Shown here piece by piece: positions 4,109 to 12,623 of a stretch of 64,000 bases of DNA; position 1 is the stretch's first letter; every line of letters begins with the position of its first letter. Both the position numbers and the translations under genes were made by a program. The notes under the pieces were generated by a model, which saw only the letters and a list, made by a program, of their open reading frames with translations, had not been told where the DNA came from and made no database searches. This stretch comes from Minisyncoccota bacterium (lineage in GTDB: Bacteria; Patescibacteriota; Minisyncoccia; Phycocordibacterales; UBA9973), in assembly GCA_041661005.1 (NCBI GenBank), contig JBAZVG010000001.1, forward strand, positions 607,515 to 671,514. Reading direction: 5' to 3'.

Positions 4109-6250
4109 TTATTTTTTAAAGAAATTACTGTCCGCCTCTTTGATAGAAAGACCAATTCTCCCTTTTTCCCTATCAATAGATATAACTTTCACGGGCACTA
4201 TCATACCCTCCTTTATTATATCGCTAACTCGCTCGACACGAAATGGGGCTAATTCAGATATGTGCACCATACCATCTGTAAAAGCATTCAACTTAACAAA
4301 GGCCCCAAAGTCGGCTATTTTTACAACTTCTCCTTTTAATATTTCTCCCACAGCATACTCGTGCGTCATTTCCAAAACTATGGACTTGGCTTTCTCTGCG
4401 GAATCACCTTTCCCTGTGAAATAGACAGTTCCATCATCTTCAATGGTGATCTCTGCTCCAGACTTTTCCTTGATCTCCTTTATAGTTTTTCCGCCACCTC
4501 CTATCACCATGCCTATCATGTCCGGATTTATTTTAATAATCAATATCTTTGGAGCGTTTGGCGATATGTCAGCGCGAGGAATTTTAATTTCTTTTTCAAT
4601 TTTGTCTAAAATAATCGCTCTGGCGGCCTTCGCTTGCAACATTGCTTCACCCAATATTTTTATCGGCACACCTTCTACTTTTACATCGAGCTGTATAGCA
4701 GTGACCCCAACCCTCGTGCCTGCAACTTTGAAATCCATGTCTCCATAGTGATCCTCAGGACCTTGGATGTCAGTCAAGATTTTATATTCATCATCAGACT
4801 TATGCATCAATCCCATCGCGATACCAGCGACAGGCGCCTTGATCGGAACTCCGCCATCCATTAATGCCAAAGTCGAAGCGCAAATCGAAGCTTGAGAAGT
4901 AGAACCATTGGAAGCCATTGATTCAGACACTAGACGAATTGTATATGGGAATTCCAAAGCAGAAGGCAAAACCATCGCGAGCGCTTTTTCAGCCAAAGCG
5001 CCATGACCCACTTCTCGACGATTTGTAAATCCTGCTCGTCCTGTTTCTCCCGAAGAATATGGTGGAAAATTGTAATGATGCATGAATCTTTTTTCAGCTT
5101 TCGTCTGCATCCCATCAATCATGTGTCTATCTTCAGGACCGCCCAATGTCAGCACCGATAAGACATGTGTCCCCCCTCGGTAAAAAATCCCGGAACCGTG
5201 CAAGACAGACGAAACCCCTCCAGCTTGAGCGTAAAGATCTCGAAGCTCATCCATTTTTCTACCATCAGCTCGTTTGTTTTCTTCGATAGCGCTCTGGTGC
5301 AGAATATCGTTTTCTGTATCATCAAACAAATTGTCTTCCGAACTAAAATCTTCTCTCTCAGTATATTTGTCTGCAACCATTTTATTCCAAATGCTATGAA
5401 GCTCGTCGATTTTTGCCTTGCCCACGCCAGAAAATATAGCATCAGACATTTTAGGCAGAATGTTTTCGTTAAATAATTTAACCGATTCAGGATCTATTTC
5501 TTCTTTCGCAATGACTCTTTTTTCTTTACCTATTTCTTTTACAATTTTCTTTTGGAAGTCTTCCAATTTGGCGATCTCTTCACTTGCCCGAGTCAAAGCT
5601 ACCTCCAATTCTTTTTCATCAGTCTGATGAGCTGAAGCTTCAATCATATTTATATTTCCATTTTTACCACAGACAGTAATATCAAATTTATATTTGGCAT
5701 CGTCTACCCTCCAGCTATACGGAGCGTTAACTATCAAACTATCGTCACTTGACTCATGGGAAGCTTGCTTTCCTTCGGGGTCATATTTTCCAATACGCAC
5801 ACAACCAACTGGACCATTCCATGGAATATTAGAAACCGCGAGCGCGAGCGAAGCGGCGTTTACTGCTAAAATTGTCGGATCATTATCGTCAACAGAAATT
5901 ACAGTCACTATCACTTGCACCGCATGGCGAATCGATTGATCAAAAAGCGGACGCAAAGTCCTATCAATAACTCGACTGGCAAGTATCGCATCTTCGCTTG
6001 GCTTGCCTTCTCTTTTTACAAACTTCGAACCTGAAATTTTACCCGAAGCGTAAAATCTTTCCACATAATCCACTGTCAAATTAAAAAATCCCAAGCCATT
6101 TTGCTTGTCTTTAGACATACAAGCAGTGGCTAGAACTATCGTCTCGCCATACTTCAACATCACTGACCCATGGGCTTGCTCTGCCAAATCTGTAAAAATA
6201 GCAGTCAAATTTTTTCCACCAATCTCCACACTATATTCTTTTTTTTGCAT
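4109..6250 (-). CDS. pnp: polyribonucleotide nucleotidyltransferase (PNPase)
   Basis: Two RNase PH domains, KH and C-terminal S1 domain. The start MQKKEY at 6250 is preferred over the upstream in-frame Met at 6313. Confidence 0.92.
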   Translation of the reverse strand: MQKKEYSVEIGGKNLTAIFTDLAEQAHGSVMLKYGETIVLATACMSKDKQNGLGFFNLTVDYVERFYASGKISGSKFVKREGKPSEDAILASRVIDRTLRPLFDQSIRHAVQVIVTVISVDDNDPTILAVNAASLALAVSNIPWNGPVGCVRIGKYDPEGKQASHESSDDSLIVNAPYSWRVDDAKYKFDITVCGKNGNINMIEASAHQTDEKELEVALTRASEEIAKLEDFQKKIVKEIGKEKRVIAKEEIDPESVKLFNENILPKMSDAIFSGVGKAKIDELHSIWNKMVADKYTEREDFSSEDNLFDDTENDILHQSAIEENKRADGRKMDELRDLYAQAGGVSSVLHGSGIFYRGGTHVLSVLTLGGPEDRHMIDGMQTKAEKRFMHHYNFPPYSSGETGRAGFTNRREVGHGALAEKALAMVLPSALEFPYTIRLVSESMASNGSTSQASICASTLALMDGGVPIKAPVAGIAMGLMHKSDDEYKILTDIQGPEDHYGDMDFKVAGTRVGVTAIQLDVKVEGVPIKILGEAMLQAKAARAIILDKIEKEIKIPRADISPNAPKILIIKINPDMIGMVIGGGGKTIKEIKEKSGAEITIEDDGTVYFTGKGDSAEKAKSIVLEMTHEYAVGEILKGEVVKIADFGAFVKLNAFTDGMVHISELAPFRVERVSDIIKEGMIVPVKVISIDREKGRIGLSIKEADSNFFKK

Positions 6251-6413
6251 TTTTTTCTTGCCCCGAGCGAAGTCGAGGGGAGTTCGTATCCAGACTACAG
6301 TGTTGTTCCGCAATTTTGGAACACTACTTTGTGTCTAGACGCGAACCGATTAACTAATAAAATCTAATCAACTTATGATCATTATAGCATTTTTAGACTA
6401 AAAGGCAATGAAA

Positions 6414-6689
6414 TTAAAAAAGTTCTGAGTGAGTACCTATATCGAATAACACCAGAACAAGTTTATTTCCTTCAATCCTGTATATTAGTAAAATATTACC
6501 TTGAATATGGCATTCTCTATATCCATCATATTCACCATGCAAGTTGTGGTCTTGATAAATTGAACCAAGTTTCTCTTCTCTACATAAAGCATCAATGATT
6601 TTATTCAGTTCTGTTTCATTAAATTTACCAGAATGTTTTAATTTCTTAAAAGACTTTTCGTATTGCTTTGTTGGAAAAGGTATAAGCAT
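6414..6689 (-). CDS. yafQ: type II toxin, YafQ/RelE-family mRNA interferase
   Basis: 91 aa; C-terminal ...GYRECHIQGNILLIYRIEGNKLVLVLFDIGTHSELF is typical of the YafQ/RelE fold; lies 3 nt downstream of its antitoxin. Confidence 0.8.
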   Translation of the reverse strand: MLIPFPTKQYEKSFKKLKHSGKFNETELNKIIDALCREEKLGSIYQDHNLHGEYDGYRECHIQGNILLIYRIEGNKLVLVLFDIGTHSELF

Positions 6690-6691
6690 TT

Positions 6692-6958
6692 CTATCTTTT
6701 CATAATATCATCGTGCATTTCTTTTGCCGATGCATATCCTTTGCCATTTTTTATTACCCAATTAAATTCTTTGTCCCATCTTTTCCTATTAGCTCTTGTT
6801 TTCGTAGTGCTAGGTACAAAGGGCATACACTGATCAATTGCTACTTGATTTAAAAACATTTTCATACCAGAAGACATATCAATACCCATACCTTTAAATG
6901 CCTTTTGGGCTCTTATTTTAGTGGGACTATCTATTCTAATTTGTATTGTTGTGTTCAT
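6692..6958 (-). CDS. dinJ: type II antitoxin, DinJ/RelB family
   Basis: MNTTIQIRIDSPTKIRAQKAFKGMGIDMSSGMKMFLNQV resembles the RHH DinJ N-terminus. The internal Met at 6958 avoids overlap with the RT gene. Adjacent to yafQ. Confidence 0.75.
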   Translation of the reverse strand: MNTTIQIRIDSPTKIRAQKAFKGMGIDMSSGMKMFLNQVAIDQCMPFVPSTTKTRANRKRWDKEFNWVIKNGKGYASAKEMHDDIMKR

Positions 6959-7019
6959 ATACATAGCATATACCCCTGTAATGACAATGTCAATACATAA
7001 AAATATGTAAACACTTTTA

Positions 7020-8069
7020 TTACTCATTCAACCAAAACCAAAATTTATTTTGTATTTCCTGGCTTAGTTTATAAGCGTTCGCATGAGATAAAACACCAAG
7101 ATAAGATTGAAGGGAAGAACGAAGAGTCAACTCACTGACTTGCCCATTCCTATAACGATTCACATTTTCTTTCAGCTTCCTAAAAATTCTTTGTTTCGTT
7201 TTTGTTCTCAACTTAATATGTTCAGGCAAAATGACGTAGCCGAGAAAATCAACGCCACGGATATGTTTAGTGATATGAACTTTTTTAGGATGGAGTTCAA
7301 GACATAATTTTGTTTCCAAAAAATCTTGTATCGCCGGAATTAAATTTTTTAGGTATGTCTTATCCGTAGAAATTATTATGAAGTCATCAGTGTAGCGTGC
7401 GTAGTATTTTATTTTCAATTCATGCTTAACGAACTGGTCAAATTCATTCATATAGATATTGGCAAAAATCTGCGATGTCAGGTTGCCGATCGGCACACCC
7501 CGGCGATCAAAGAGATTTCTTTTGTTCGTCTCAAAGCTCTCGATGATTTCTCGCATGAGTTTCATCACTTTTTCATCCCTGATTCTTTTTTCCAGAATGC
7601 CGAGCAAAACATTATGATTCACAGAATCAAAAAACTTTCTGATGTCGCATTTCAGAGCATAACACCGGCGGGTACTATTTTGACTTACGGAGCGAGTCAT
7701 CTCTACAACCTTTTCCATCCCTTTGTGAGTTCCTTTACCGACACGACAAGAAAAAGAATCAGGAATAAAGGTCGGCTCAAATATCGGATTAAGTACATTA
7801 AAAATAGCGTGGTGGAGAACGCGGTCGCGGACAGTCGCTTTATGAATCCGGCGCAGTTTCGGGTCATGAATCCAAAACCCTTTATACGGTCCATGTTTGT
7901 ATATTCCGCTCTTTAAATCCCTATAAAGATCGAAAATGTTTTTTTCGAGATTAAGTTCAAAATCGCTGACGTCTATCCTGTTTCTTTTGTCCGCTTTAAA
8001 CATGTCCCATGCGCGAAATAATGAAGAAGGAGAAATTATTAACCAATATAAATCTTTATAGAATTTCAT
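7020..8069 (-). CDS. diversity-generating retroelement reverse transcriptase
   Basis: 349 aa; RT motifs including YARYTDDFII (YxDD) and the DGR-specific motif-4 PIGNLTSQ (IGxxxSQ); sits next to avd, TR and VR. Confidence 0.9.
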   Translation of the reverse strand: MKFYKDLYWLIISPSSLFRAWDMFKADKRNRIDVSDFELNLEKNIFDLYRDLKSGIYKHGPYKGFWIHDPKLRRIHKATVRDRVLHHAIFNVLNPIFEPTFIPDSFSCRVGKGTHKGMEKVVEMTRSVSQNSTRRCYALKCDIRKFFDSVNHNVLLGILEKRIRDEKVMKLMREIIESFETNKRNLFDRRGVPIGNLTSQIFANIYMNEFDQFVKHELKIKYYARYTDDFIIISTDKTYLKNLIPAIQDFLETKLCLELHPKKVHITKHIRGVDFLGYVILPEHIKLRTKTKQRIFRKLKENVNRYRNGQVSELTLRSSLQSYLGVLSHANAYKLSQEIQNKFWFWLNE

Positions 8070-8072
8070 TTT

Positions 8073-8423
8073 ATGAATGACCTAGATATCCCCATCTTAA
8101 GAAAATCCTACGACCTGTACAAAGAATTTTACAAACTAAGATTAGTAGTACCAAAACAAGATCGCTATGTTCTTTGGCAGAAATGCGAGAATACTTTGAT
8201 CACCGTCTTAGAAGGTGCATTGCTTGCCAGTCAGCAATCTAAAATGGAGAAACTACCAACACTGGAAAGAACCAGCGTTAAGCTAAACTTCCTGAAAGTT
8301 TGTGTTCGCCTTATGAAAGACGTCAAAGCTATTAATTCCAAAACTTATATCGTCATCGAAGCAGATCTCGACGAGATTGGAAAAATGCTTGGAGGGTGGA
8401 TTAAATCCACAAAAGAGCGTTAA
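8073..8423 (+). CDS. avd: DGR accessory variability determinant (Avd, four-helix-bundle family)
   Basis: 116 aa; the C-terminal EADLDEIGKMLGGWIKSTKER resembles BPP-1 Avd (EVGRILGSWIARVNRK); divergent from the RT gene with 3 nt between the two start codons. Confidence 0.8.
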   Translation: MNDLDIPILRKSYDLYKEFYKLRLVVPKQDRYVLWQKCENTLITVLEGALLASQQSKMEKLPTLERTSVKLNFLKVCVRLMKDVKAINSKTYIVIEADLDEIGKMLGGWIKSTKER

Positions 8424-8424
8424 C

Positions 8425-8456
8425 AGAAACTCCCACGATTTAAGGTGGGAGTTTCT
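8425..8456 (+). terminator. hairpin just after the avd stop (agaaactcccac-N8-gtgggagtttct), T-rich 3' flank
   Basis: Perfect 12-bp inverted repeat starting 2 nt after the avd stop; lies between avd and TR. Confidence 0.45.
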
Positions 8457-8478
8457 TATGAGAGAAGATGGAAATGCC

Positions 8479-8586
8479 GGGAGGCGCCAACACCGACGTT
8501 GTCGTTCTGGTTACCATTCCAGTTGTTGACATTGAGACCGTTCTCGTTGAAGTTACCGACGCACGAGACGTTACCAGCGTTGACCT
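8479..8586 (-). repeat. DGR template repeat (TR), sense on the minus strand
   Basis: 108 bp homologous to 9083-9190. On the minus strand it reads QVNAGNVSCVGNFNENGLNVNNWNGNQNDNVGVGAS with 12 AAC/AAT codons. Not inside any plausible ORF. Confidence 0.85.
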
Positions 8587-9000
8587 AACGTATATTGCTT
8601 GTTTTCATCCGTGTCACCAAGAATTGAGTTTTACCGTTTTTGCAAACCTATATACTCTTTCCTTTGTTTTAGATATAAAGTTCCAAACCTTATATCAGAT
8701 TTAATTTGGAAGCATCTGTATAAACAGAACTTCACTAAAAACAAGCAAGAATTTCCATCTCTATTCTTAATCGCACTCTACTGTGATCCGTAGACCATTA
8801 GTATTCCGGCGATATCTCAAGATGAGATATCTCGCGAGCTTGAACCGTAATCCAAACTACATTAGCAAGATGTAAATATATTAACTTAATGTATATAAAA
8901 TAGAAAGACCTCGCGAGAAGCAGAGCTTTCACGAGGTCTGACGAACCTCGTGGTTCGTATTTGTTATAGACAAGATAATATAAGAATCACCCACATCAGA

Positions 9001-9033
9001 GCCTCCGCGCCCCAGAAAAAATGGCGCGGAGGC
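9001..9033. promoter_or_regulatory. GC-rich hairpin (11-bp perfect stem gcctccgcgcc/ggcgcggaggc, 11-nt loop), 27 nt past the target stop and 50 nt from the VR 3' end
   Basis: Inverted repeat seen directly; no U-run on either strand, so not a canonical intrinsic terminator; position matches DGR hairpin/cruciform elements. Confidence 0.5.
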
Positions 9034-9059
9034 TCAAGTAGTCAAGAGGAGCAAATCCT

Positions 9060-9707
9060 CTAGGCTACAAGGGTCACTTTCAGGGAGGCGCCAACACCGA
9101 CGCGGTCGCCCTGGAGACCACCCCAGCCGATGACAGAGAGACCGTGCCCGCCGAAGATACCGACGCACGAGACGTCACCAGCGTTGACCTGCGCGGTCTT
9201 CACGGTACGCTCGGCGCAGGCCGCCCAAACGTTCGGGTTGGACCGCTTTCCGGTGCGACGATAGACGAGGATATCCTTGGTCACTTCGGCGATGGTCGTC
9301 GGCACTTCGTACTCAGGGGGCAACATCGCCACCTGCTCTTCGGGCGTCTTGCTCGTCGAGCCGGGAACAATTTCCCTGAGCATGATGTACAAACGCGGTT
9401 CGAGTACCGCGATGTCCGTGTGTGGCTGACCCACATGCCACGGATTTGTGTTGAAGTAGAACTTCGGCTGTCCGTCCGCCGAATGTAGCTCAAGCCACTT
9501 CGCGACCGTGAGCGGATTGCCGTCGAGCGCCGGCATCCCCATGAAGGCGAAGTGAGTGTCTTTCACCAGTTTGCCCTTGTTGAAGGGGCAGGCGCTCATG
9601 AGGACTTCCTCGACCGCCGGGCCCAACTTTTCAGTTGGGCCGTAGTAACTGACCCAGTCGGCTTGACCGAAGATGCGAACTCGGAGGTCCTGCGTTGTGC
9701 TTGTCAT
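9060..9707 (-). CDS. DGR variable (target) protein, VR at the C-terminus
   Basis: 215 aa; ~60% GC ORF in a ~35% GC context; the last 36 codons are the VR (9083-9190). Confidence 0.8.
   Translation of the reverse strand: MTSTTQDLRVRIFGQADWVSYYGPTEKLGPAVEEVLMSACPFNKGKLVKDTHFAFMGMPALDGNPLTVAKWLELHSADGQPKFYFNTNPWHVGQPHTDIAVLEPRLYIMLREIVPGSTSKTPEEQVAMLPPEYEVPTTIAEVTKDILVYRRTGKRSNPNVWAACAERTVKTAQVNAGDVSCVGIFGGHGLSVIGWGGLQGDRVGVGASLKVTLVA
9083..9190 (-). repeat. DGR variable repeat (VR)
   Basis: 108 bp; 19 differences from TR, all at TR adenine positions (minus-strand sense). AAC in TR becomes GAC/ATC/GGC/CAC/CTC/CGC in VR, and AAT becomes TCT or GGT. Confidence 0.85.
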
Positions 9708-9765
9708 TGCTTTATCCTTTCGGTTGCCAGATTCGCTCTGGCTTTTGTTGCGGCCTGTCTCAGTT

Positions 9766-9850
9766 GAGAGACGAGCCCTCTGTCGCCAAATAAATTATTG
9801 GCTCAAAAAGTTTACCCGTCCCGTCGCTTTAGCGAAGGAGGGCTCGTCTC
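9766..9850 (-). promoter_or_regulatory. 13-bp perfect inverted repeat (gagacgagccctc ... gagggctcgtctc) enclosing two small hairpins, in the 5' leader of the DGR target gene
   Basis: Seen directly; nested stems gccaa-taaattat-ttggc and cgc-ttta-gcg. Confidence 0.35.
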
Positions 9851-9945
9851 ATGTAGGGATTCTTGTAAAAGAGCAGTTCTTTAAACTGTTTTTAGTATAA
9901 CATGAAAGAGGACAACCTGTCAAGAAAATTTAGAAATGTCTTTTT

Positions 9946-10455
9946 CTATTTCACCCCGATCAAATACTTGCGAGGATTCTCGGAAAGATCTACGAAGTCG
10001 TCTACCGCTTCGCGAAGCTTACCGGAAGTTGATTGACTAAACGAGACGACTTCTACTTGCACCCCCATCGTCTGCAAGTATTCCACGAGTGGAACAAAGT
10101 CTCCATCACCAGAAACGATAACCGCAGAGTCGAGGCGAGGCGACATTTTGATAGCGTCTACTGCGAGCCCCACGTCCCAATCCGCCTTCTTGCTTCCCCC
10201 GGCGAATATTTGCAAGTCTTTTGTTTTAGTTTCGATACCGAGCTTGGACAACGCTTCAAAGAAATTCTTTTCATCCCCTGCTTCGGTAGTGATGACATAC
10301 GCCACTGCGCGCACAAGCTTCCTGCCCGCCACTGCATCGCGCAAAACCGCGCCGAAATTTACTCGCGCTTTATATAAATTGCGAGCCGAATGGTATAAAT
10401 TTTGAGTATCAATAAAAACCCCAACCCTCTGTTCTTTATGTTTTATTACTGTCAT
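9946..10455 (-). CDS. NYN-domain (LabA-like, COG1432) protein
   Basis: MTVIKHKEQRVGVFIDTQNLYHSARNLY... then VIVSGDGDFVPLVEYL; the internal Met at 10455 is preferred. Confidence 0.75.
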   Translation of the reverse strand: MTVIKHKEQRVGVFIDTQNLYHSARNLYKARVNFGAVLRDAVAGRKLVRAVAYVITTEAGDEKNFFEALSKLGIETKTKDLQIFAGGSKKADWDVGLAVDAIKMSPRLDSAVIVSGDGDFVPLVEYLQTMGVQVEVVSFSQSTSGKLREAVDDFVDLSENPRKYLIGVK

Positions 10456-10489
10456 GTAATTATTATAGCAGATATTAAAATTTGTCGCA

Positions 10490-10590
10490 GGCGTACTTTT
10501 TAGAAAGCCTTGCGCAGGCTGACGAGCCGAGCAGTTCGCTGGCAAAGCTTTGCCAGATAGATTGCTTTATGAAAAGTATGCCAAGAAAGA
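10490..10590 (-). repeat. intergenic TIR/hairpin repeat family 1, copy A (reverse orientation)
   Basis: Shares ~100 bp with 13517-13609 and 23539-23631; 18-bp terminal inverted repeats; central variable hairpin ctggcaaagctttgccag. Confidence 0.7.
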
Positions 10591-10600
10591 ATTTTAATAT

Positions 10601-10864
10601 CTAAACGAGTTCAACCTTCTTCATCAAAGCGTTGTAGCGAGCCTTGTTTGTTCTTTCCAAATATTTCAAATGAGTGCGTCTGTTGGCCACCATCTTGATC
10701 AAACCCCTTCGAGAATGATTGTCTTTCTTGTGTTTCTTTAAATGTTTTGCCAATTCATCAATCGCCGCAGAAATAATAGCCACCTGCACCTCTGGAGAGC
10801 CTGTGTCCTTATCATGAATCTGATTTTTCTTTATAATTGTCTGCTTTTTCTTTACTGCTAACAT
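10601..10864 (-). CDS. rpsO: 30S ribosomal protein S15
   Basis: TGSPEVQVAIISAAIDELAKHLKKHKKDNHSRRGLIKMVANRRTHLKYL matches the S15 consensus; internal Met at 10864 (88 aa). Confidence 0.9.
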   Translation of the reverse strand: MLAVKKKQTIIKKNQIHDKDTGSPEVQVAIISAAIDELAKHLKKHKKDNHSRRGLIKMVANRRTHLKYLERTNKARYNALMKKVELV

Positions 10865-10962
10865 ACAAAGGATAATAGCATAAACTGGCAAAAATTGCAA
10901 TCCCACCCTCTCCTCAAGATTTTTTGTATAAAATATATTGTGCGACATGGTAGAATATATTC

Positions 10963-11949
10963 ATGGCATCAATTAAAGATCTAAAAAACCAATTTCTTGA
11001 ATATATAGAAATAGAAAAAGGACGAGCGATAAGAACCGTAGAAAATTACGATCATTATTTGACTGTATTTCTGGAGCAGACAAAAATTACAGACCCCAAA
11101 AACATAACCGACGATAAAGTCCGAGACTTTCGTATTTGGCTCAATCGTCAACCCGCATTGCCGGAGCACATGCGAGGCAGGTCCACTGGAAACAATCGCG
11201 TGACAGGCGACACCATAAAAAAGAAAACACAGAATTATTATTTAATAGCTCTCAGAAGTTTCCTAAAATTTTTAACAAAAAGAAATATTAATTCCCTACC
11301 GGCAGACCATATAGAGCTCGCAAAAATCAGTGAAAGACAAATAGACGTAATTTCTCAAGAAGAATTGAAAAGACTTTTAGACGCTCCGAATCAAGAAAAA
11401 AATCCTGAAAGAAAAGCTCGCGACAAGGCAATACTAGAGATGCTTTTTTCCACCGGTTTGCGTGTTTCTGAACTGTGTTCGTTGAAAAATGATTTAGATC
11501 TGCATTTAGACGAATTTTCTATCCGTGGAAAAGGAGGAAAGGTCCGCGTAGTTTTCTTGTCTGACGAAGCCAAGAAGGCGGTGAAAGATTATTTAACTTT
11601 GCGAAAAGACATGTCGGACGCTCTTTTTGCAAAAGTAAATGATGAAACTTTTAAAGGAAAAAATTTGAATCAAAAAAAGAATAACTCAGAAATAGAAGAT
11701 GGCCTAACTCGCCGTTCGATAGAAAGAATTGTAAAAAGATACGCCACGATCGCCGGCATATCCAAAAAAGTAACTCCCCATGTGATTCGTCATGTCTTCG
11801 CGACTGACCTCTTAAGCAACGGCGCAGACATTCGTTCTGTGCAAGCCATGCTCGGCCATGCCAACATAGGTACTACACAAATATATACTCACGTGACGGA
11901 CAAACATTTGCGGGATATACACAAGAAATATCATGGCATCAATAAATAA
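10963..11949 (+). CDS. xerC: tyrosine recombinase XerC/XerD family
   Basis: 328 aa; C-terminal HVIRHVFATDLL...GHANIGTTQIYTHV (R-H-R-Y catalytic residues); extended -10 TGgTAGAAT lies 6 nt before the ATG. Confidence 0.88.
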   Translation: MASIKDLKNQFLEYIEIEKGRAIRTVENYDHYLTVFLEQTKITDPKNITDDKVRDFRIWLNRQPALPEHMRGRSTGNNRVTGDTIKKKTQNYYLIALRSFLKFLTKRNINSLPADHIELAKISERQIDVISQEELKRLLDAPNQEKNPERKARDKAILEMLFSTGLRVSELCSLKNDLDLHLDEFSIRGKGGKVRVVFLSDEAKKAVKDYLTLRKDMSDALFAKVNDETFKGKNLNQKKNNSEIEDGLTRRSIERIVKRYATIAGISKKVTPHVIRHVFATDLLSNGADIRSVQAMLGHANIGTTQIYTHVTDKHLRDIHKKYHGINK

Positions 11950-11969
11950 GGTATAATAAATTCATAAAT

Positions 11970-12623
11970 ATGGATTATTCAAAACACAAAGATTACTACA
12001 AAACGGCATATCAAAATGGCACTGACATTTGGACGCACTTGCCGGTCAAGACAAGGGGCGTAAAGAAATTGATAGAAAAACTGCCTCCCGGTGGATCTAT
12101 TTTAGACATCGGTTCTGGGCGTGGACTTATTGCAAAAAATTTGGCAGAAATGGGTTTTAAAGTTATCGGTATAGATTTCGAAGGAGATGTCGTGAGGAAA
12201 GTAAACGAGGAAATAAAAAACTGGAAGCTGGAAGGCAAGTTGAAATTCATAGAAGCAGATGTCTTTGACATACCCTTCACAGATGCTAGCTTTGACGGAG
12301 TTTGTGATTTTGGATTATTGGAAAATTTATACCAAGGAGACTGGGAGCTTTATGCAAATGAGATAAATCGCATCTTGCGACCGGGTGGATTTTATTTAAA
12401 TGTTTCCTTATCGCGCAAAACGAAAGATTTCTTAGACTTCTCCCCTATCAATTCTAAAAATGGAGAACTTGAAAAAGATGACGTGCACTATCATTTTTTC
12501 GAAAAAGAAGAGATTGTAAATATCTTTAACAAAAAAATGACATTAGTTTCCGATAGCATAGAATTTTCAGAAAAACCAAGAGAGGTGGCGCTACTGCAAA
12601 CACTTTTCCAAAAGAAAAAATAA
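11970..12623 (+). CDS. class I SAM-dependent methyltransferase
   Basis: Motif I ILDIGSGRGLIAKNLAEMGFKVIGIDF. Confidence 0.75.
   Translation: MDYSKHKDYYKTAYQNGTDIWTHLPVKTRGVKKLIEKLPPGGSILDIGSGRGLIAKNLAEMGFKVIGIDFEGDVVRKVNEEIKNWKLEGKLKFIEADVFDIPFTDASFDGVCDFGLLENLYQGDWELYANEINRILRPGGFYLNVSLSRKTKDFLDFSPINSKNGELEKDDVHYHFFEKEEIVNIFNKKMTLVSDSIEFSEKPREVALLQTLFQKKK

Follow-up and report, generated by a model that had tools for sequence, protein, structure and literature searches.

A diversity-generating retroelement of a candidate phyla radiation bacterium with a covarying leader RNA predicted to enclose its template repeat

In the B3 layout of diversity-generating retroelements (DGRs), the gene for the accessory variability determinant (avd) lies antisense between the template repeat (TR) and the reverse transcriptase (RT) gene, which leaves no room for a spacer RNA downstream of TR. 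To our knowledge, the DGR of Bordetella phage BPP-1 is the only one that is mechanistically understood, and its spacer RNA is essential for priming, processivity, and termination. Where, then, did the spacer function go in B3 DGRs? This question is raised here by a locus of a Minisyncoccota bacterium (GTDB lineage Bacteria; Patescibacteriota; Minisyncoccia; Phycocordibacterales; UBA9973), analyzed within a window of 64,000 nucleotides (GenBank assembly GCA_041661005.1, contig JBAZVG010000001.1, positions 607,515 to 671,514) whose own numbering is used throughout; features lie on the minus strand unless stated otherwise. We read the region, with a probability of about 93%, as a complete chromosomal DGR with the TR-(avd)-RT architecture typical of candidate phyla radiation (CPR) bacteria, operating by the mechanism proposed below. 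Judged as a DGR, the locus is nothing unusual among CPR bacteria and a new example of a known architecture, and its pair of TR and variable repeat (VR) is one more beside the thousands already catalogued. What appears to be new is a covariation-supported RNA fold that encloses TR, together with the hypothesis that this RNA is a permuted version of the known scaffold.

The evidence for a DGR begins with the repeats themselves. TR (8479-8586) and VR (9083-9190, ending 23 nt ahead of the target stop codon) align without gaps over 108 nt with 19 mismatches, and all 19 fall on TR adenines (11 A>G, 4 A>T, and 4 A>C). An initial annotation of this DNA had counted the same 19, and its translations and codon changes (AAC to GAC, ATC, GGC, CAC, CTC, or CGC; AAT to TCT or GGT; GAG to GGG) proved correct. 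Since TR consists of 28 A, 29 G, 29 C, and 22 T, the probability of 19 randomly placed mismatches all landing on adenines is C(28,19)/C(108,19) = 1.0e-14. Read in the VR frame, TR carries 12 AAC and 2 AAT codons, and each of its 28 adenines sits at codon position 1 or 2, with none at position 3. A proposed check, that the unchanged adenines might lie outside the first two codon positions, therefore came out negative, and "protected" third positions do not account for the nine adenines that stayed unchanged. Six of these belong to AAC codons (the AAC nearest the 5' end contributes both of its adenines, and four half-mutated AACs contribute one each), and three are at position 2 of CAG, CAG, and GAC. 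The GC-rich 3' ends of the two copies (GTCGGTGTTGGCGCCTCCC, the final 21 nt) are identical, as had been noted, and the copies diverge only in flanking sequence. Similarity drops to background level immediately outside either end, in agreement with the abrupt limits of homology described initially. The 3' limit of identity (8479) adjoins an invariant G at 8478, at which a long-range helix (P-LR) begins, and the 5' limit (8586) is 8 nt from another helix (P3). A degenerate A>N pattern search detected no third copy of the repeat in the 64-kb window.

The initial reading of these repeats as the TR/VR pair of a DGR with adenine-specific mutagenesis is borne out by an RT gene, a bAvd gene, a lectin-fold target, and eight related loci. 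The RT (7020-8069, 349 aa; Pfam RVT_1, 4.6e-27) carries the motifs IGNLTSQ (residues 194-200) and YTDD (226-229), which are invariant among relatives and conform to the [I/L]GxxxSQ and YxDD signature, so that by its motifs it probably belongs to the DGR clade. Among PDB entries it is closest to the Bordetella phage bRT (8ub7, E 1.9e-45, versus 7e-26 for a group II intron RT). The avd gene (8073-8423, plus strand) matches Pfam bAvd at 3.5e-15 and 56.9 bits, above the cut-off of 40. The start codons of RT and avd are divergent and only 3 bp apart (8067-8075), an arrangement conserved in relatives. Promoter-like sites at 8126-8154 (minus) and 7995-8022 (plus), both consensus matches, each lie inside the coding region of the other gene, and the avd and RT mRNAs would therefore overlap antisense at their 5' ends.

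The target gene (9060-9707) encodes a variable protein of 215 aa whose C-terminal part is VR. Its modelled fold is that of the C-type lectin (CLec)/formylglycine-generating enzyme (FGE) group found in DGR variable proteins such as TvpA (2y3c), Mtd (1yu0), and TaqVP (5vf4), and in this model VR would form the C-terminal ligand-binding surface. When 47 homologues are aligned, the scaffold proves to be tightly conserved, with hypervariable columns located exactly at the positions of TR AAC codons. The protein has no match to a Pfam or NCBIfam family and no obvious signal peptide, and a sequence search of the PDB with the target-family profile returned a chance match only. Its sequence is the same as that of a hypothetical protein from a Candidatus Paceibacterota metagenome-assembled genome (MAG), and 204 homologues occur in CPR bacteria. 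The target gene (9060-9707) has a GC content of ~60% in a genome region of ~35%, and homologues are 60-84% identical across several CPR classes, which together suggest horizontal spread or a strong compositional constraint. In some genomes (L001/L006 and L014) the target gene has no DGR within 8 kb; the L009 locus is cut by the contig end.

Scanning species-representative genomes with the target protein yielded 13 loci, seven of which (L003, L005, L007, L008, L010, L011, and L012) share the order target, TR, reversed avd, and RT; the MAG titles of these seven include Nomura-, Kuenen-, and Yanofskybacteria. The orientation of avd opposite to TR and RT is conserved in the same seven loci and in L097. 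Across the nine loci that bear a TR, the present one included, 136 of 136 TR/VR differences are at TR adenines.

Some relatives differ in the state of their DGR. A Patescibacteria MAG (L004) has the same neighborhood from the NYN-domain gene and target to the RelB-YafQ pair, and lacks an exact block of 1,884 bp that comprises promoter, leader, TR, hairpin, avd, and RT (window 7000-8883 versus L004:4755-5020). Because L004 lacks exactly this block and the flanks are collinear to within one base, the DGR core behaves as a clean unit of gain or loss. In the window, a 7-nt direct repeat, TTTACAT, occurs near both ends of the block (8876-8870 and 7011-7005). Between the VR of L004 and the present TR, 15 of 20 differences are at TR-adenine positions. 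In L007 (1545-2961), avd is interrupted by an in-frame stop and the RT match is split, and the locus still shows 16 TR/VR differences, adenine-only. L013 (9168-9305 and 14821-16618) has a leader and TR beside an RT remnant; a second complete TR-(avd)-RT DGR lies ~6 kb away, with an RT that is 49% identical and a leader/flank complement recognized by eye.

Upstream of TR, and adjoining its 5' end, is a structured leader RNA (8587-8867) delineated by covariation, nhmmer, and minimum free energy (MFE). Read from its 5' end, the predicted fold comprises P1 with a UACG loop (8833-8867), a variable hairpin P1b (8813-8832), P2 with a C(UACG)G loop (8771-8812), the long-range strand of P-LR (8748-8770), and the long-range helix P3 (5' strand 8738-8747, 3' strand 8596-8605). 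P3 in turn encloses a hairpin P3a (8709-8733), a conserved A-rich single strand (8699-8708), and a long interrupted stem P4 (8619-8664), and an 8-nt linker (8587-8594) leads on to TR, which begins 8 nt past the P3 3' strand. An extra hairpin insert of ~31 nt (CUGAUAUAAGG...CUUUAUAUC, 8667-8698) is found between P3a and P4 in the present locus, L003, and L005, and a different insert occupies the same site in L018, so this single-stranded site tolerates insertions.

The stretch from the target terminator to TR is conserved among loci whose RTs are only 50-60% identical. A metagenome scan with the RT alignment provided 80 further loci, and among the 95 loci entering the leader search, a nucleotide profile (nhmmer) located the leader directly 5' of TR in about 70; it is also present in one viral contig. 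Leader-bearing loci include some whose TR is of a different sequence class; the leader therefore travels with the RT/avd lineage and not with the target. The leader is absent from a relative whose genes follow the canonical avd-TR-RT order, and present in a viral-contig relative with an inverted avd. No Rfam 15 family matched the region 6000-12000 at E <= 1, the only hit within 8400-9060 being a chance match to snoU18 (E = 7), and a blastn search in distant mode with the 461-nt RNA region gave no match in a phage database. Neither a 280-nt leader nor pairing across TR is mentioned in Wu et al. 2018, Handa et al., or Weinberg et al. 2017, the three papers to which this statement applies (Paul et al. 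2017 falls outside it). The multi-helix leader thus appears to be a conserved and so far undescribed RNA.

Covariation within this fold is strong. RNAalifold predicted 58 pairs from an alignment of 52 sequences, 50 of them with compensatory double changes. Standard pairs account for 94.7% of cells, versus 38-47% when partners are slid by 1-3 columns, and the covariation score is 0.71 versus 0.10-0.19 for slid partners; none of 500 shuffles reached either value. Taken alone, the 448-nt window sequence has an MFE of -138.7 kcal/mol (z = -5.5), and this single-sequence structure contains P1, P1b, P2, P-LR, P3, P3a, P4, and the terminal hairpin. The initial annotation had placed TR outside any open reading frame (ORF). 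TR does lie in conserved, structured, non-coding RNA, yet two mechanical plus-strand ORFs (8468-8704 and 8377-8529) overlap it, and this stretch is better explained as structured RNA than by these ORFs.

The helix that would tie the leader to the far side of TR is P-LR. Here, the first ~18 nt after TR (GGCAUUUCCAUCUUCUCU, 8461-8478) pair with the leader strand 8748-8770, ~230 nt upstream, with AGAUGGAAAU and AUUUCCAUCU as the core of the pairing; the G at 8478 is invariant in 52 loci. Because the leader strand pairs with the sequence just after TR, the two ends of TR would be clamped together. A strict column-pair helix scan did not find the leader/flank helix in an alignment that was misregistered between subfamilies, and RNAalifold returned no structure for mini-constructs of leader strand, flank, and hairpin or for terminal hairpins alone; both nulls arise because MAFFT placed the subfamilies in different registers. 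P-LR and the terminal hairpin were accordingly tested without alignment, using own-versus-permuted duplexes and per-sequence folding. Duplexes between a leader and its own flank average -14.1 kcal/mol (RNAduplex), compared with -7.2 for shuffled flanks and -9.4 when leader and flank come from two loci that resemble each other in neither segment. When flanks were permuted among loci the mean was -10.64 +/- 0.39 kcal/mol, and 0 of 20,000 permutations reached the own mean. The two strands also change together by subfamily (GAGAUAGAA/UUCUAUCUC, AGAUUUUAGA/UCUAAAAUCU, and GAGGAGA/UCUCCUC). Other leader segments gave no comparable locus-specific flank signal, the adjacent P2 region reaching only z = -2.5. 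Pairing of the TR 3' flank with the 40 nt just upstream of TR, which the published survey assumes, was tested and rejected (z = +1.5, whereas the distal strand gives -8.6).

A terminal 12-bp hairpin (AGAAACUCCCAC/GUGGGAGUUUCU, 8425-8456, no strand given), flanked by A- and U-runs, follows the TR flank and abuts the stop codon of the convergent avd gene. It recurs in 51 of 51 loci with 9-14 bp and 27 different stem cores (mean z = -7.5), and likely represents a bidirectional terminator and/or an element of the "Avd-binding stem-loop" type; by analogy, P2 with its UNCG loop could be the Avd-binding element instead. In the survey of Handa et al. (bioRxiv 10.1101/2023.10.23.563531), 207 of 278 DGRs have stem-loops just downstream of TR. 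A pairing between the 3' arm of this hairpin and the TR 3' end (GGGAG/CUCCC) was dropped, being absent in the second TR class. At the other end, a -10-like box, TAATAT (8878-8883), read by eye as a consensus match, predicts a separate DGR-RNA transcript. Of 52 related loci, 32 have a TAnnnT hexamer at a distance of 9-14 nt upstream of P1; for the window, the scan chose another hexamer.

These features suggest a mechanism. An RNA of ~450 nt (about 8872 to 8425) would be transcribed from its own promoter and would adopt the fold indicated by covariation, in which the 5' leader strand pairs with the sequence that directly follows TR and the closure of P3 is 8 nt ahead of TR, leaving the 108-nt template looped out between two adjacent duplexes. 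As expected for the family, RT and Avd would reverse-transcribe TR and misincorporate opposite adenines, the adenine-only pattern itself being observed. The cDNA would then take the place of VR in the 3' part of the target gene for the lectin-fold protein, a process of which the outcome is seen in VR, and would recode, within the ligand-binding face, 14 Asn codons together with a few others that contain A. By analogy with the ribonucleoprotein (RNP) of the Bordetella phage, the leader/flank duplex would position the primer, and P3 would be the point at which polymerization stops.

Three other explanations deserve consideration. The repeats might be an ordinary segmental duplication or gene-conversion tract with neutral divergence, an idea for which a 108-nt imperfect direct repeat exists and nothing more, and whose probability is close to nil. 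It is refuted by the mismatch spectrum, with 19 of 19 differences at the adenines of one copy (p about 1e-14), and is further contradicted by the same asymmetry in eight other loci, by sharp homology ends that coincide with RNA helices, and by the adjacent RT and Avd genes. The DGR might instead be a fossil, in which the parts are still recognizable, mutagenic retrohoming has ended, and VR is a frozen record of past diversification. Decay among the relatives fits such a history: the in-frame avd stop and split RT match of L007, the TR of L013 with only an RT remnant, and the target of L004, which has a diversified VR but no TR-avd-RT cassette. In the window, however, the RT, avd, and target ORFs are intact and the RT retains its catalytic motifs, TR keeps all of its AAC and AAT codons, and the invariant leader nucleotides and every helix are preserved, and we consider a fossil unlikely. 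The leader, finally, could be no part of a scaffold for the RT, serving as a riboswitch-like or attenuator-type cis-regulatory RNA for TR transcription or as a separate small RNA. In favor of this, a -10-like box of its own precedes it, its size and its many helices are shared by numerous cis-regulators, and it matches no known DGR RNA motif, its priming and stop assignments coming by analogy. On the other hand, the locus-specific P-LR and a P3 helix 8 nt 5' of TR mean that the fold physically includes TR, there is no terminator between leader and TR, and the leader follows the RT/avd lineage instead of the target class and is missing where a canonical downstream spacer exists. An independent role for the leader is, on this balance, improbable.

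The reading as a complete DGR with the proposed mechanism also has to face, besides the decay of its relatives, several points that weigh against it. Present-day activity of this DGR is presumed from its sequence, the promoter and transcript ends are predictions from consensus or structure, and the primer and stop roles of P-LR and P3 are proposed by topological analogy with one solved RNP. The NCBIfam model DivGenRetAVD scores 76.6 bits with avd, just under the threshold of 80 set for it. The leader showed no sequence similarity to the spacer RNA of the Bordetella phage, and Rfam RT-10 gave no match. A further check, for asymmetry between the initiation of mutagenic homing (IMH) sequence and its TR counterpart IMH*, was negative as well, with no internal difference within the TR/VR repeat. 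Identical IMH/IMH* cases do exist among DGRs (Wu et al. 2018, PMC5758913).

The target gene is accompanied by additional signals. Its predicted promoter, a consensus match, is a sigma-70-like TTGACA-18-TATACT (9894-9923) that agrees with the consensus at 11 of 12 positions, better than any other site in the region, and is conserved upstream of short-form target genes in relatives. The 5' untranslated region (UTR) of ~185 nt (9708-9893) is likewise conserved in short-form targets (L003, L004, L006, and L012). It contains a stem GAGACGAGC...GCUCGUCUC, formed by the 23-nt inverted repeat at 9768-9790/9828-9850, and a covarying hairpin GCCAGAGCGAAUCUGGC; it has no Rfam match and may be a putative cis-regulatory RNA. 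Downstream of the gene, a GC-rich 13-bp hairpin read from the sequence (8999-9035, no strand given) starts 47 nt downstream of VR and has no U-tract. It is kept in all related loci including L004, with arm changes that preserve pairing, and may correspond to the inverted repeat located after IMH in the DGR of the Bordetella phage (Wu et al. 2018, PMC5758913). A second hairpin, followed by a T-tract (8897-8939; stem AGACCTCG/CGAGGTCT, then TTCTATTTT), is also kept in relatives and is a predicted intrinsic terminator of the target transcript.

Along the minus strand, the locus thus runs from rpsO (10948-10601) and an NYN-domain gene (10545-9946) through the promoter, the target ORF with VR, the two hairpins, and ~280 nt of non-coding sequence to TR, and continues with the 12-bp hairpin, avd (plus strand), RT, a RelB/YafQ toxin-antitoxin pair, and pnp. 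The genes rpsO and pnp are usually adjacent, and here the NYN gene, the DGR, and the RelB/YafQ pair lie between them (4109-10948). The RT stop codon overlaps an upstream ATG of the longest RelB ORF (7020-7027), and RelB has a promoter-like site of its own at 6993-6965. Between rpsO and the NYN gene lies a 39-nt inverted repeat (10470-10602) whose arms are 77% complementary and 55 nt apart.

How does this locus compare with known systems? The B3 architecture, TR-(avd)-RT, makes up 90% of the CPR DGR set of Wu et al. 2018 (PMC5758913; set from the survey of Paul et al. 2017), and the inverted avd is therefore typical rather than odd. The present locus is a B3 DGR, with TR, a reversed avd, and RT on the TR strand. 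It shares with the B3 DGRs of CPR and DPANN in that study the gene order and strands (target, TR, reversed avd, and RT), the CPR host group, a target without a Pfam domain, and a TR rich in AAC, and shows no difference in gene architecture. The Rfam motifs RT-1 to RT-19 are structured RNAs next to bacterial RT genes, among which RT-10 is located in the TR-RT spacer of BPP-1 with a proposed role in DGR priming (Weinberg et al. 2017, PMC5737381). In contrast to these motifs, the present RNA lies upstream of TR and not between TR and RT, and it matches no model at E <= 10 except for the chance snoU18 hit.

The closest counterpart is the RNA of BPP-1. As described by Handa et al. (bioRxiv 10.1101/2023.10.23.563531), TR forms a loop in the BPP-1 RNP between two duplexes that lie side by side. 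One of these is the template:primer duplex, formed by TR 117-129 with nucleotides 47-56 of the spacer RNA (Sp), and the other is the "cPRT Stop" duplex, in which Sp 59-70 pairs with the segment immediately preceding TR. The primer and stop strands are contiguous in Sp; a UNCG-capped Avd-binding stem-loop precedes them, and after them come a short stem-loop, the A-minor adenosines, the single-stranded "thumb ring", and an RT-binding stem-loop that is long and interrupted (same source). Both systems share a homologous RT (E 1.9e-45), Avd, adenine-only mutagenesis, and a VR at the C-terminus of a lectin-fold protein. As in BPP-1, TR here would be looped out between neighboring duplexes, with both non-template strands next to each other in a single RNA segment, and the order of elements is the same: UNCG stem-loop, strands, stem-loop, A-rich stretch, single strand, and long interrupted stem-loop. 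We propose by this analogy that P2 could be equivalent to the Avd-binding stem-loop, the P-LR strand to the primer strand, the P3 strand to the stop strand, P3a with the A-rich stretch to the short stem-loop with the A-minor adenosines, the leader single strand to the thumb ring, and P4 to the RT-binding stem-loop.

The two systems differ in the position of this block. In BPP-1, Sp follows TR on its 3' side and separates it from the RT gene, whereas the present block is 5' of TR, and only ~55 nt separate TR from the avd stop codon, with no Sp 3' of TR as in the BPP-1 type. The space between TR and RT here contains the antisense avd, which is on the other strand than in BPP-1. The partner of the flank is ~230 nt upstream and not within 40 nt of TR, and P-LR uses sequence just beyond the TR/VR homology, whereas the BPP-1 duplex uses the last 13-17 nt of TR. 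Because connectivity and element order are the same while the block is 5' instead of 3' of TR, the present RNA would be, topologically, a circular permutation of the BPP-1 RNA. Extending this to function is tentative, and we hold it to be somewhat short of an even chance that the RNA scaffold for priming, positioning, and stop in B3 DGRs of CPR bacteria is such a permutation. In that scheme, an Sp-equivalent block 5' of the template would clamp TR through a duplex with the sequence immediately 3' of it. The sharp limits of TR/VR homology beside P-LR and P3 fit this scheme, and two more observations agree with it: the leader is missing from the avd-TR-RT relative but occurs in the viral contig with inverted avd, and the second, more distant DGR of L013 has a leader/flank complement recognized by eye.

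If true, a permuted scaffold would explain how B3 DGRs function despite an antisense avd at the usual spacer site, and cDNA synthesis would start at about 8479, primed from the invariant CUU junction at 8747-8749. The covarying leader is a testable candidate for where the spacer function may have gone in B3 DGRs, and leader and TR together define a minimal RNA of ~450 nt for reconstitution of a CPR DGR. The DGR RNA survey of Handa et al. covered 40 nt upstream and 100 nt downstream of TR (bioRxiv 10.1101/2023.10.23.563531). Because it covers only 40 nt upstream, that survey would not see the P-LR partner, and surveys so limited would miss the real pairing partner in the present lineage, where the BPP-1-like arrangement of strands would be found on the 5' side of the template.

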